Shown here: positions 10,664-13,452 of the stretch, in pieces
How the letters are laid out: each line of letters begins with the position of its first letter
Numbering within the stretch: position 1 is the stretch's first letter
DNA from: Ignavibacteriales bacterium
Lineage (GTDB): Bacteria > Bacillota_I > Bacilli_A > RF39 > UBA660
NCBI GenBank assembly: GCA_050259235.1
Contig: JBLNAG010000002.1
Location: 88,893-152,892, forward strand
Direction of reading: 5' to 3'
DNA length: 64,000 bases
Position numbers and translations under genes: made by a program
Notes under the pieces: model-generated
Databases searched by the model: none
What the model was told of the DNA's origin: nothing
Seen by the model: the letters and a program-made list of their open reading frames with translations, nothing else

Positions 10664-11176
10664 CTACATCTCACAATAATTAACAACACCTGGTATACTA
10701 ACAATATCTAATAAAAATTGAATTAAAGCAGGGAAAACAAATAATAAAACAGCTGCTGCTAATCTCTTAAAGAATTTTGTTCCTGCTTTTTTAAGTGCAT
10801 CATTATCTTGTGAAACAGTAGCTTTAATAAAATCAAGCATACCAAAAATCAAAACAAGTAATGGAGCAAAAATTTTAACATAGCCAAATATCTTGTTTAA
10901 AAAAGCTTTTGTATCGCCACTGATTAATTCATCGCAATTTGCTGCTCCTCCACCTGCTAATACAAATATATTTTTATCAGCAGTTACCAAAATATCATTT
11001 TGAATTGATACGACTGGTATTGGATTAATAAAGTTATAGCTCTTAATATCTTTCTTTTCTAATGCTTCTATATGATTAACTCCAATAAAAAGCATCACAA
11101 AAATAAATATCATTCTTGTGGTTATTTTCTTAACATTTTTACTCATATATATCTCTCCTAAATTGTTATATTTCAA
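10664..11176 (-). CDS. small membrane protein, paralog of next gene (candidate VirB2/ConC-like pilin-type subunit)
   Basis: 170 aa. N-terminal signal/TM, short soluble segment, then TM-loop-TM with GMLDFIKATVSQDNDALKKAGTKFFKRLAAAV. This aligns with GMLDLGKAVIAQKEDEIKKGQQVFMKRLLAAA of 11238..11540. Confidence 0.4.
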   Translation of the reverse strand: MKYNNLGEIYMSKNVKKITTRMIFIFVMLFIGVNHIEALEKKDIKSYNFINPIPVVSIQNDILVTADKNIFVLAGGGAANCDELISGDTKAFLNKIFGYVKIFAPLLVLIFGMLDFIKATVSQDNDALKKAGTKFFKRLAAAVLLFVFPALIQFLLDIVSIPGVVNYCEM

Positions 11177-11237
11177 TAAACATTATAACACAAAAAAAAA
11201 CAATAATAAATATTTATTTATTGTTTTTTTATCATTA

Positions 11238-11540
11238 CTAGAATATAGCTTCTAAGCATCCAGTATCTCCACCAACTAATTGTACTATAAATTTAACAAT
11301 TACTATAACGAAGAATACGATAGCTGCAGCCAACAATCTCTTCATGAATACTTGTTGACCCTTTTTAATTTCATCTTCTTTTTGTGCAATAACAGCTTTT
11401 CCTAAATCAAGCATCCCCCAAATTACTAAAAGTACAGGAACACCAATTTGAATTGCGGTAATAATATTACGAATAAGACCTGTTATTTCTGTTGGAACTG
11501 TTGCAGTACCTATTGTACATAGAGTTTGAATAAATCCCAT
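11238..11540 (-). CDS. small two-TM membrane protein (candidate VirB2/ConC-like)
   Basis: 100 aa. Two TM helices separated by a charged loop. Paralogous to the C-terminal half of 10664..11176. Confidence 0.4.
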   Translation of the reverse strand: MGFIQTLCTIGTATVPTEITGLIRNIITAIQIGVPVLLVIWGMLDLGKAVIAQKEDEIKKGQQVFMKRLLAAAIVFFVIVIVKFIVQLVGGDTGCLEAIF

Positions 11541-11564
11541 ATTTTACCTCCTCTGGTTAAATTA

Positions 11565-11593
11565 ATTATATATGAAAATATAGTTATTGTCAA
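11565..11593 (-). promoter_or_regulatory. consensus sigma-A promoter (TTGACA-17 nt-TATAAT) followed by AGGAGG RBS for the T4SS module
   Basis: Minus-strand reading: TTGACAataactatattttcataTATAAT. -35 at 11588..11593 and -10 at 11565..11570 with exact 17-nt spacing. AGGAGG lies about 8 nt before the ATG at 11540. Confidence 0.55.
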
Positions 11594-11606
11594 TATAATA
11601 TAACGT

Positions 11607-12572
11607 TTACCCTTGTTTTATTTTATCAAAACCCAATTTATTCAGAAAATTTTCTACATCTTCTGACTTCTTTTCACGTTCATCTAATGGTGGCAGATTG
11701 TAGAATACTTTAAGACGTGATTCATATTCAAAATCCATAACATCTTTTTGAGTAAGTAAACTTTGATTTAATACGATCTTTTTATCCTTAAGTTGTTCTA
11801 ACACTTTACCATTTAACATCATTAATTTATTTAATTTTATAACTGATGGTTCAATTAGATATATAACTTCAGTCGCTAATTCCTCAGCTAAAACACTATT
11901 ATTAATATCCATTAATATTACATCAGCATCCTTGTTTTTTGCAATCATATTTGAAACTTCATTATTTGTAGTGCTTAATAGTGATTTATCTCTGAAATAG
12001 ACAAAATCTCTCTTATCAACTTCAATAGCCACTACATTATAATAATTTTCGAGATGTTTTTTTAATATATATATAAGTGATGTTGATCCTGATTGTTTAG
12101 TTACATTTTTAAATCCTATTACTCTAGAACTTTTACTTTCACTATAAATAGTTGCATTAGGTTTAAGAGGATCTCCTGTTGCAACAGGAGTATCTAATTG
12201 ATGAATATGTGCAACATCTCGATAAGAATTTGGATGATTATATAGATACATAATCCCTTCAACATTCTTAGTGAAATTATAAATTCCCATCGATATAAGT
12301 TTGGATAAATATTCGGCAGAAGTACTTTCTATCGAATCATCCAACAGTAATATTACTTTATCCATATCTAAAGCTATAGATAATTTTTGCAAGTTTTTTA
12401 TATCTTTATAATTTTTTATTGCTGTTATATCTAAAATAATCCTTTGAAAATAGAAATTTTGAAAGGTTGCAATAATTTCTTCAACATCAAATTCTCCATC
12501 CATTGTCTTAATGATTTCAATATCAAGAGATTGTAACATTGACTTATATCGATTTGAAATTATAACATTCAT
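11607..12572 (-). CDS. TadZ/CpaE-like pilus assembly protein (N-terminal pseudo-receiver + degenerate ParA/MinD-like domain)
   Basis: 321 aa. N-terminal 110 aa has receiver-like alternation of hydrophobic strands. Central GFKNVTKQSGSTSL resembles a deviant/degenerate Walker A. Position next to tad genes. Confidence 0.4.
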   Translation of the reverse strand: MNVIISNRYKSMLQSLDIEIIKTMDGEFDVEEIIATFQNFYFQRIILDITAIKNYKDIKNLQKLSIALDMDKVILLLDDSIESTSAEYLSKLISMGIYNFTKNVEGIMYLYNHPNSYRDVAHIHQLDTPVATGDPLKPNATIYSESKSSRVIGFKNVTKQSGSTSLIYILKKHLENYYNVVAIEVDKRDFVYFRDKSLLSTTNNEVSNMIAKNKDADVILMDINNSVLAEELATEVIYLIEPSVIKLNKLMMLNGKVLEQLKDKKIVLNQSLLTQKDVMDFEYESRLKVFYNLPPLDEREKKSEDVENFLNKLGFDKIKQG

Positions 12573-12590
12573 TAATTCACCTTCTTTGTT

Positions 12591-13013
12591 TTAAATGTCA
12601 ATAAATGGTCTAGTTTGACCAGTTAGTGGAAATTCCACAACGTCTCCGATGACAGGAAATTCAAATGAAATAAAAACTGTTACTGTGTAATAGTAACCTC
12701 TAACATCACTAAATTTATAAATACAATACCTATAATTACTTTGATTATTAATTGCAGTTTGTCCGTTCAAAGAAGGACATGCTTTTGGAGTCCCTCTAGT
12801 TACCTTATAACCTGCTTGACTTAAAAGAGTATTTATTTCAGTCCTAACAACACCGTTATTGTAAGTTTCGTACTTTTCAATTATTTCAATAATTCGGGTT
12901 TTTATTTTAAAGGTTTTAGAATAACTAAGTGATCCAACTAAAAGAACAATTAGTATACCCACAAAAACTATAATTAAATTAAATATATATGAATTTGCAA
13001 TTGATTCTCTCAT
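12591..13013 (-). CDS. TadE/TadF-like pseudopilin (paralog 1)
   Basis: 140 aa. MRESIANSYIFNLIIVFVGILIVLLVGSLSY: short polar N-terminus plus a single TM. Globular C-domain with a conserved Cys pair. Tandem paralog of 13030..13452. Confidence 0.5.
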   Translation of the reverse strand: MRESIANSYIFNLIIVFVGILIVLLVGSLSYSKTFKIKTRIIEIIEKYETYNNGVVRTEINTLLSQAGYKVTRGTPKACPSLNGQTAINNQSNYRYCIYKFSDVRGYYYTVTVFISFEFPVIGDVVEFPLTGQTRPFIDI

Positions 13014-13029
13014 TTTTTATCATTCCTAT

Positions 13030-13452
13030 CTAAAATCTATATATACGATCTGATTTTGTATAAATAGGTATCTTTATAAAAGTATCAAAAAAAGGAAAAT
13101 CAAAATAGATATAAGTCATAATACCATAACTATAATGTCTATCATCTCCATCATTACTAAATAAGTATACACAATATGGATAATTTGCATCTTGAGCTTG
13201 TAGCACCCCACCATTTCTAGTAGATGGACAAGTTATCTTTGTAGTTGAATATCCAATTGTCTTTAAAGTATCTGATATATTAGTTTTAGCTTTAGTATTA
13301 TAACCTTCATATTTTTCAATTGTACTTATTATCCTATTGTTTACTTTGAAAGCTTTATAATAACTAAGAGTTGCAGCTAAGAATGCAAAAATTAATACAA
13401 TAAAAATAATAATTAAATTGTATAAAAATACACTCCCAATACCTTCTCTCAT
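13030..13452 (-). CDS. TadE/TadF-like pseudopilin (paralog 2)
   Basis: 140 aa. MREGIGSVFLYNLIIIFIVLIFAFLAATLSY. Same architecture and Cys pair (CPS...YPYCVY) as its neighbour. Confidence 0.5.
   Translation of the reverse strand: MREGIGSVFLYNLIIIFIVLIFAFLAATLSYYKAFKVNNRIISTIEKYEGYNTKAKTNISDTLKTIGYSTTKITCPSTRNGGVLQAQDANYPYCVYLFSNDGDDRHYSYGIMTYIYFDFPFFDTFIKIPIYTKSDRIYRF

Follow-up and report, generated by a model that had tools for sequence, protein, structure and literature searches.

A conserved chromosomal cluster of Tad-like and type IV secretion genes with arrays of small hairpin membrane proteins in uncultured low-GC Bacilli

The 64,000-nucleotide stretch studied here (positions 88,893 to 152,892 of contig JBLNAG010000002.1, assembly GCA_050259235.1; hereafter the window) carries four small open reading frames, all on the minus strand, that belong to a conserved chromosomal cluster combining a Tad-like filament module, a type IV secretion system (T4SS) and an array of hairpin genes. 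This cluster is the main result added by the present analysis. The four genes are T170 (10664..11176) and T100 (11238..11540), encoding hairpin proteins of 170 aa and 100 aa, and p140B (12591..13013) and p140A (13030..13452), encoding two proteins of 140 aa. A first-pass annotation had read them as two tandem duplications of VirB2-like and TadE/F-like pilus subunits. VirB2-like roles for T100 and T170 and pseudopilin-like roles for p140A and p140B are still the best reading of the data, and one that we hold to be somewhat probable. We likewise lean towards regarding the four genes as encoding structural subunits of one conserved chromosomal surface machine in uncultured low-GC Bacilli.

Conservation and gene order of the cluster

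One genome per GTDB species was scanned, T100 relatives were found in 185 genomes, and 78 loci were fetched. The p140A and T100 queries returned 258 and 533 homologous proteins, respectively, almost all from metagenome-assembled genomes labelled Bacilli or Tenericutes. Additionally, a T100-family profile search of 1.84 billion representatives identified 8401 relatives at E <= 0.001, indicating that the hairpin module is very widespread.

Most of the fetched loci that reach far enough keep one gene order. It begins with DUF5411, CpaB, a CpaF-like ATPase, two membrane proteins, pil78 (a 78-aa candidate pilin), p140A, p140B and a 321-aa protein, and continues with one to six hairpin genes, VirB6, VirB3, a TrsD-like protein, VirB4, a wall hydrolase, a lipoprotein and VirD4. 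Four variant loci (L037, L039, L014 and L026) hold the hairpin genes and the T4SS only. The view that a VirB2-like and an Flp-like filament system are both encoded here was right in that T4SS and Tad-like modules are both present, with the four proteins between them; the two modules form one conserved cluster, however, and not separate systems.

Each locus that covers this position holds a single A-type and a single B-type 140-aa gene, in unchanged order, except for a few variants with the B-type only. The retention of both types across loci indicates old paralogues kept by selection. The tandem duplications reported for the two pairs are therefore real, with pairwise similarities given below, but a recent origin was ruled out, as the two members of either pair are ancient and conserved. 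VirB4 has a median identity to the window of 81% and the secretion ATPase one of 77%, against only 40% for p140A/B, 33% for VirB6 and 33% for T170. Compared with the motor proteins (74-81%), the low identity of p140A/B, VirB6 and T170 is the pattern expected if these proteins are exposed at the surface.

Hairpin proteins T170 and T100

T170 and T100 are 33% identical over 84 aa (E 3e-14), and the alignment spans the first transmembrane (TM) segment, the loop and the second TM segment. The TM-loop-TM core described for the two proteins was borne out by this alignment, as was their common motif, GMLD.-KA--Q-D--KK---F-KRL-AA. According to a hydropathy scan, both proteins have two TM segments, preceded in T170 by a signal-peptide-like segment. 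Specifically, T100, the candidate major VirB2-like subunit, is a two-helix membrane hairpin without a signal peptide, whereas T170 and many other paralogues start with a Sec signal peptide, which in T170 is followed by a short extracellular segment and the two-TM hairpin. Translation of T170 probably begins at the ATG at 11146 (MSKNVKK..., 160 aa), with an AGGAGAG ribosome-binding site a few bases upstream.

The loop between the two hydrophobic helices is almost invariant in the T100 family (WGMLDLGKAV.AQKEDEIKKGQQ.F.KR). Given the net positive charge of the loop sequence KAVIAQKEDEIKKGQQVFMKR and the neutral or acidic tails, the loop should lie on the cytoplasmic side and both tails outside; the Sec signal peptide of T170 and many paralogues points to the same orientation, with the N-terminal part outside. 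Propilins of the VirB2/TrbC/TraA type consist of two hydrophobic helices that are joined by a short basic loop in the cytoplasm and have their tails outside, and the hairpin proteins were found to have the same layout. An AlphaFold 2 model of T100 is also a hairpin, with helices at residues 17-52 and 55-89 and a predicted local distance difference test score (pLDDT) of 76. The VirB2/TrbC-like topology proposed for the two-TM proteins thus agrees with the hydropathy scan, the model and the loop charge. Moreover, two cysteines are conserved in the T100 family, one in the short N-terminal tail and one in the C-terminal tail; by analogy with cyclisation in VirB2/TrbC, a disulfide between these two external residues could tie the T100 ends.

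Gene position and profile searches supply further evidence. T100 and T170 lie directly upstream of VirB6, PrgI/VirB3, the TrsD-like gene and VirB4, which is a virB2-type position, in the window and in almost all loci covering it. Against the T4SS pilin family PF18895 (cut-off 26.6 bits), T100 scored E 0.048 (14.2 bits) and T170 E 0.065 (13.8 bits), both aligning over nearly the whole 71-position model (positions 7-71 for T170). Within the hairpin family, 7 of 39 members matched PF18895 at E <= 0.01 (best 6.2e-6), as did 16 of 150 representatives at E <= 0.001, and P0149, an orthologue 58% identical to T100, bears a precomputed PF18895 annotation. This was the only biologically plausible family recurring among the matches of the hairpin proteins, which never matched PF04956 (TrbC/VirB2); their DUF621 and GPCR Pfam matches were dismissed as compositional TM noise. 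The suggested relation to VirB2 is accordingly supported in part, by topology, by position and by those family members that reach PF18895, while the scores of the window proteins themselves do not establish membership of that family.

The hairpin genes occur in arrays of one to six copies, and in longer family proteins the hairpin is C-terminal (53 of 61), so that, as in T170, a variable external domain comes before it. Median identity across species is 56% for T100 and 33% for T170, which is a fast-evolving paralogue of T100. With T170 as the query, close orthologues amounted to only about 10 clusters, and nothing linked the protein to other phyla.

Other results speak against a VirB2-like role. 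A Foldseek search of the T100 model against the PDB gave a best E of 3.3, with generic hairpins only and no VirB2/TraA among 50 matches; with so generic a fold and a pLDDT of only 76, the search was uninformative. Moreover, none of the four window proteins matched a curated pilin family at its own threshold. A rather doubtful but possible alternative is that T100 and T170 are integral parts or accessories of the T4SS translocon that stay in the membrane instead of forming a filament. The Foldseek result and the generic fold suit it, as do the scores of the window hairpin proteins far below the PF18895 cut-off. Small two-TM proteins of unknown role exist in Gram-positive conjugation operons and would be a parallel for T100 and T170, reviews describe Gram-positive T4SSs without VirB2, and the extreme conservation of the T100-family loop also fits a fixed contact with cytoplasmic ATPases. 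However, arrays of one to six copies with variable external domains N-terminal to the hairpin fit an abundant, diversifying, exposed subunit better than a channel part of fixed stoichiometry. The smallest hairpin copy, T100, is also flanked by a consensus promoter of its own and a terminator-like hairpin, and arrays of this pattern have been reported for the VirB2-like pilins of Patescibacteria. A VirB2-like role is therefore preferred.

Promoter-like sites and stem-loops

The two best promoter-like sites of the region are exactly those upstream of T100 and pil78, although the total count of such sites was not above that in shuffled sequence. Directly upstream of T100 lies the best one, a sigma-70 consensus of TTGACA, 17 nt and TATAAT (11565..11593, minus strand) matching 12 of 12 positions. 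The site upstream of pil78 (13852..13879, minus strand) is near-consensus (11 of 12) with an extended TG.

Just past the T100 stop codon, an AT-rich stem-loop with a U9 run (11190..11231, minus strand; -10.3 kcal/mol, with a modest z of -1.75) looks like an intrinsic terminator or attenuator. In other loci, the median length of the spacers behind small hairpin genes is 91 nt, and a run of T6 or longer occurs in 54 of 67. A promoter and a terminator-like hairpin at T100 would suit an abundant major subunit, which is only suggestive. A stronger stem-loop (13505..13562, minus strand; -31.5 kcal/mol, z -4.1) occupies the 129-nt spacer between pil78 and p140A. Most other loci have only about 29 nt after pil78 and no stem-loop; a conserved stabilising hairpin at this place was thus rejected.

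140-aa proteins and the Tad-like module

p140A and p140B are 40% identical over 134 aa (E 1e-25), and their family profiles match each other with 100% probability (E 1.2e-48). All 120 listed p140A homologues are nearer to A than to B. The features first described for the pair were confirmed, namely a common N-terminus, a single N-terminal TM segment in each protein according to the hydropathy scan, and a conserved cysteine pair; C75 and C94 (p140A numbering) are invariant across 130 family members. An AlphaFold 2 model of p140A from a 49-sequence alignment (pLDDT 86, predicted template modelling score 0.71) consists of a helix at residues 4-47, a short helix at 53-66 and a four-stranded sheet, and this modelled layout is that of a type IV pilin.

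Position agrees with the model. Tad loci have two paralogous genes, tadE and tadF, right after flp and downstream of tadA-tadB-tadC, and p140A and p140B take the same place, behind the Flp-sized candidate major pilin pil78 (13582..13818, minus strand), which has one N-terminal TM segment and a Cys-rich C-terminal part. The general layout of a type IV pilin (short leader, hydrophobic helix and beta-sheet domain) is likewise seen in these proteins, with pil78 reduced to a helix and a short Cys-rich tail.

The N-termini have a common form. Family members begin with M(R/K)E(S/G)(I/V)G-S in p140A and M(R/K)E(S/A)(I/V)(G/A/S)-N in p140B; in the window the proteins start MREGIG/SVF and MRESIA/NSY, respectively, the slash following the leader. 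The start M-K/R-E-S/A is common to pil78, p140A, p140B and the DUF5411 protein (17799..18209, minus strand; PF17424 at 1.2e-50), and in pil78 (MKEAAG), p140A (MREGIG) and p140B (MRESIA) the six-residue leader ends in Gly or Ala at position 6 and a hydrophobic helix follows. The prepilin peptidase recognises a leader ending in Gly and followed by a hydrophobic helix. The N-terminus of pil78, MKEAAG/EANLTV.AI.LI, is nearly invariant, with an invariant Glu at +1. The DUF5411 protein has a single TM segment and may be a further pilin-like subunit; its start is probably the GTG at 18200 (giving MKESFW...), which is better placed relative to the ribosome-binding site.

Upstream of pil78 lie the other Tad-like genes, all on the minus strand. 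The secretion ATPase (15647..16930; T2SSE 1.2e-27) belongs to the TadA/CpaF, FlaI and VirB11 group. The CpaB/RcpC-like protein (16934..17767) matched PF16976 at 1.1e-6, its 29.0 bits barely passing the cut-off of 28.8, and was the only protein with a Tad label to reach a curated cut-off; its match to TIGR03177 (8.6e-9) is below that model's own cut-off. Two polytopic membrane proteins of 301 aa and 260 aa (13942..15629) are in the tadB/tadC position and have median identities across species of 74% and 69%; their fit to TadB/TadC is one of position and membrane topology only.

Several results count against a Tad-like assignment. TadE (PF07811) was matched at E <= 0.01 by none of the 130 p140A/B proteins, and Foldseek found nothing significant in the PDB for the p140A model. 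After the leader, the motif is G followed by S.F(L)YN in p140A and G or A followed by N.F.FN in p140B, without Glu at +5. When processing motifs were checked, as the first-pass annotation had advised, pil78 was found to have G/EANLTV and not G/XXXXEY, so that it also lacks the canonical Glu+5. Neither Flp (PF04964) nor N_methyl (PF07963) was matched by any of the 63 pil78 members. The T2SSF Pfam family gave E 0.46 for the 260-aa membrane protein and nothing for the 301-aa protein, PDB profile searches with both found no match, and hhalign detected no mutual similarity between the TadB-like and TadC-like families. The ATPase is similarly close to FlaI (9e-18), CpaF (1e-17) and a VirB11-like protein (1.5e-16) among its best PDB matches; these near-equal E-values make its clade inseparable, with VirB11 and CpaF equally close. 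Finally, no prepilin peptidase is present in the cluster or the window.

Further profile searches gave little. No other pilin profile was matched by any of the 130 p140 family members, no Pfam or NCBIfam family matches p140A or p140B, NCBIfam gave nothing meaningful for the small window proteins, and no TadZ was recognisable in the cluster. The archaeal Pilin_N family was matched by one of the 63 pil78 members (E 0.009). Sporulation-channel and ComG competence genes were ruled out, there being no SpoIIIA or ComG profile matches.

The proposal that p140A and p140B are TadE/F-like pseudopilins is thus supported by the pilin-like model and the tadE/tadF position, and it is not supported by family membership, since neither TadE nor, for pil78, Flp was matched. 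We read the two proteins as functional counterparts of TadE/TadF and not as members of that Pfam family. An unlikely alternative is that they serve the T4SS as an adaptor, a tip or a wall-spanning part of the structure made by the hairpin proteins.

T4SS module and chromosomal setting

Downstream of the hairpin genes, the T4SS module (531..10639, minus strand) encodes a VirB6/TrbL-like protein (8636-10639; Pfam 1.6e-9), a PrgI/VirB3-like protein (8283-8615; weak Pfam match), a 185-aa TrsD-like protein (7760-8317) resembling the VirB4 N-terminal domain, a 594-aa VirB4 (5976-7760; PDB 4ag5 at 6.8e-56), a wall hydrolase with M23 and NlpC/P60 domains (3563-5956; Pfam), a lipoprotein (2811-3566) and the VirD4 coupling protein (531-2795; 4.5e-56). 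VirB4 is split, the 185-aa TrsD-like protein preceding the 594-aa ATPase in every locus. The TrsD-like piece is 76% identical across species, indicating that the split is not a frameshift.

The window is chromosomal, and the rest of it holds scpA/scpB, two gerA-type operons, dapF, serS, polA, polC, prfA and argS. The 64 kb showed no relaxase or integrase domain and no repeat boundary, and the conserved cluster of the other fetched loci also lacks a relaxase. The absence of a relaxase thus applies to the window and the conserved cluster, and not to whole genomes. A nucleotide search of the region against plasmids found no match.

That the cluster is the transfer module of an ordinary or decayed integrative conjugative element, with the small proteins serving mating-pair formation, appears to us quite improbable. 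VirB4, VirD4, VirB6 and a wall hydrolase do make up the Gram-positive conjugation core, the nearest plasmid VirB4 proteins come from conjugative Bacillus, Enterococcus and Staphylococcus plasmids, and a Mycoplasmatota plasmid (see below) likewise sets a Tad locus beside VirB4. However, the 64 kb revealed no relaxase, integrase or repeat boundary, and housekeeping genes form the flanks. VirB4 is at most about 30% identical to the VirB4 proteins of 2063 plasmids, and T100 had no match in 72,556 plasmids. Moreover, divergent species share the cluster together with its rhodanese neighbour, at a VirB4 identity of 81%, which looks like vertical inheritance. Compared with mobile-element transfer, contact-dependent exchange or uptake of macromolecules between cells is therefore the likelier function of this chromosomal machine, given the housekeeping flanks and the lack of a relaxase in the window and the conserved cluster.

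Neighbouring genes

The window has a GC content of 28-30%, and nearly all genes from 200 to 30000 are on its minus strand. Next after VirD4 is a gene for a rhodanese-domain protein (202-483, minus strand), which is also present in L024 and L050, both of the other loci that extend that far; it may be a cluster member or a conserved chromosomal neighbour. Between p140B and T100 lies the gene for the 321-aa protein (11607..12572, minus strand), for which neither the single sequence nor a profile found a PDB match.

Upstream of the Tad-like genes are further conserved genes (18469..27683, minus strand), encoding two Cys-rich secreted proteins, a 226-aa protein that has both a signal peptide and a TM segment at its C-terminus, and a polytopic protein of 536 aa. 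The two secreted proteins, of 1176 aa and 1060 aa (18469-21999 and 22131-25313, minus strand), are a third pair of tandem paralogues, with an identity of 42% over 883 aa that rises to 68% across the final 182 aa. Neither has a Pfam domain, and both are kept upstream of the Tad-like genes in other loci.

A 552-aa prepilin-like protein (53330-54988, minus strand; PF07963 1e-7) has the N-terminus MKNQG/FTLIELLAVIVIL, in which MKNQG-FTLIE is canonical. Its gene stands alone, with polA on one side and polC on the other, distant from the pilus machinery. The presence of this canonical prepilin suggests that the genome should have a prepilin peptidase.

Two convergent GerA/GerC/GerB germinant-receptor operons (31765-35571, plus strand, and 35584-39584, minus strand) indicate that the host is a spore-former. 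The label "Ignavibacteriales bacterium" on the identical NCBI T100 protein looks like that of a mislabelled bin.

Proposed machine and its significance

On the basis of the paralogy, gene order, topologies, predicted p140A fold and T4SS and ATPase identities reported above, we infer filament formation, leader processing, a division into major and minor subunits, and a transported substrate. The first module would be a divergent Tad-like filament system composed of the CpaB-like protein, the CpaF/FlaI-type ATPase, the proteins in the TadB/TadC position, pil78 as the major pilin, and p140A/B. A prepilin peptidase encoded elsewhere in the genome would remove the six-residue leader M-K/R-E-x-x-G. 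p140A and p140B would be low-abundance minor pilins acting like TadE and TadF; their hydrophobic N-terminal helix would enter the filament core, and their small sheet domain, stapled by a disulfide, would prime or cap the filament.

The second module would be a Gram-positive-type T4SS preceded by the hairpin genes. T100 would be an abundant VirB2-like subunit with its basic loop in the cytoplasm and its disulfide-linked tails facing outward. T170 would be a variable paralogue, equipped with a Sec signal peptide and an extra external segment, and displayed on the T100 structure or at its base.

More tentatively, the two modules can be joined in one hypothesis. A vertically inherited, relaxase-less Firmicutes T4SS might build a VirB2-like pilus from a diversifying hairpin array and be coupled genetically, and perhaps mechanically, to a leader-variant Tad-like pilus without Glu+5, with both filaments acting together in the contact-dependent exchange or uptake of DNA or other macromolecules. 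The essential Patescibacteria system, whose pilin array is needed for epibiotic growth and has an unexplained origin (PMC12102498; PMC12857230), might then have its closest Gram-positive relative, or even its donor, in this lineage. A conserved chromosomal T4SS of ordinary gut and environmental Bacilli that combines the TrsD/VirB3/VirB4/VirB6 set with an array of VirB2-like hairpin genes would establish that VirB2-type pilins occur in Firmicutes and point to a possible evolutionary origin of the Patescibacteria system, and a second lineage would become available for testing the hypothesis of a Gram-positive conjugative-type pilus. Additionally, because the T4SS is constantly linked to a Tad-like pilus whose leader is unusual, the cluster is a naturally occurring example in which the cooperation of type IV filaments with T4SSs can be studied.

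Comparison with known systems

We found no literature account of the present combination of Tad-like and T4SS genes. The closest analogue, by component set and array pattern, is the T4SS of Patescibacteria, which reviews regard as unique among monoderms, a chromosomal relaxase-less system of MPF-FATA ancestry with TrsD, PrgI/VirB3, VirB6 and VirB4, in which arrays of 2-11 VirB2-like genes were detected with PF18895/PF04956 (Quinonero-Coronel et al. 2025, PMC12102498). The same work lists Gram-positive T4SS classes without virB2 (PMC12102498), and a December 2025 review from the Christie laboratory names Patescibacteria, in which the array is essential, as the exception to the absence of VirB2 from Gram-positive T4SSs (PMC12857230). 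The two systems share a monoderm MPF-FATA-type VirB4, a TrsD-like N-terminal protein encoded separately, PrgI/VirB3 and VirB6; each is chromosomal, has no relaxase nearby and coexists with a type IV pilus system. Tandem, divergent genes for small two-TM pilin-like proteins are present in both, with 2-11 copies in Patescibacteria and 1-6 here. Unlike in Patescibacteria, the host belongs to a spore-forming Firmicute lineage, the hairpin family only borders PF18895, and the cluster itself incorporates a Tad/archaeal-like type IV filament module and also encodes VirD4 and a large wall hydrolase.

The Tad-like module resembles the Gram-positive Tad (type IVc) systems in its order of an ATPase, two membrane proteins, a small pilin and two paralogous minor subunits, and in minor subunits that consist of an N-terminal helix and a small extra domain. 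In Bifidobacterium, the locus order is tadZ-A-B-C-flp-tadE-tadF, with tadV outside the locus (PMC13091076); a peptidase outside the locus is also a feature of the cluster described here. In contrast to Gram-positive Tad loci, this cluster has no Flp, TadE or T2SSF profile match and no recognisable TadZ, its leader is M-K/R-E-x-x-G without Glu+5/Tyr+6, and it is tied to a T4SS. With the Gram-negative VirB2/TrbC/TraA pilins, the cluster shares small two-helix proteins of the T100 type, encoded upstream of virB3/virB4. It differs from them in the lack of PF04956 and Foldseek matches, in the lack of a signal peptide in T100 and in the monoderm cell.

Cooperation between type IV pili and T4SSs is known from the thin pilus of IncI R64, from PAPI-1 (VirB4/VirD4 plus a type IV pilus) and from archaeal Ced plus Ups (PMC12857230). 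Here, too, VirB4/VirD4-type proteins are encoded side by side with a type IV filament machine, and from this conserved linkage only we infer cooperation like that of the known systems, whose parts work jointly in transfer between cells. The known cases are Gram-negative mobile elements or archaeal, however, with other filament types and unrelated gene orders.

Another parallel is the 97.9-kb plasmid CP074574.1 of the cold-seep Mycoplasmatota bacterium zrk4 (locus L081, 14167-43900), which has a canonical Tad locus after VirB4. This VirB4 shares 30% identity with that of the window, and the genes behind it encode, in turn, SAF/CpaB, an AAA ATPase, CpaF, a TadB-like protein, a T2SSF protein, two small pilins and TadE-like products. 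The pilins, which are small, Cys-containing Flp proteins, have the canonical G/xxxxEY-type motif (G/SPSLEY and G/SLSLEF), unlike those of the present cluster; the TadE motifs are ordinary as well, and the gene order differs; among the zrk4 plasmid proteins, no member of the T100 or p140 families was detectable, and the T100 family profile found no match. The Tad locus beside VirB4 on this Mycoplasmatota plasmid indicates that the association between Tad and VirB4 recurs.

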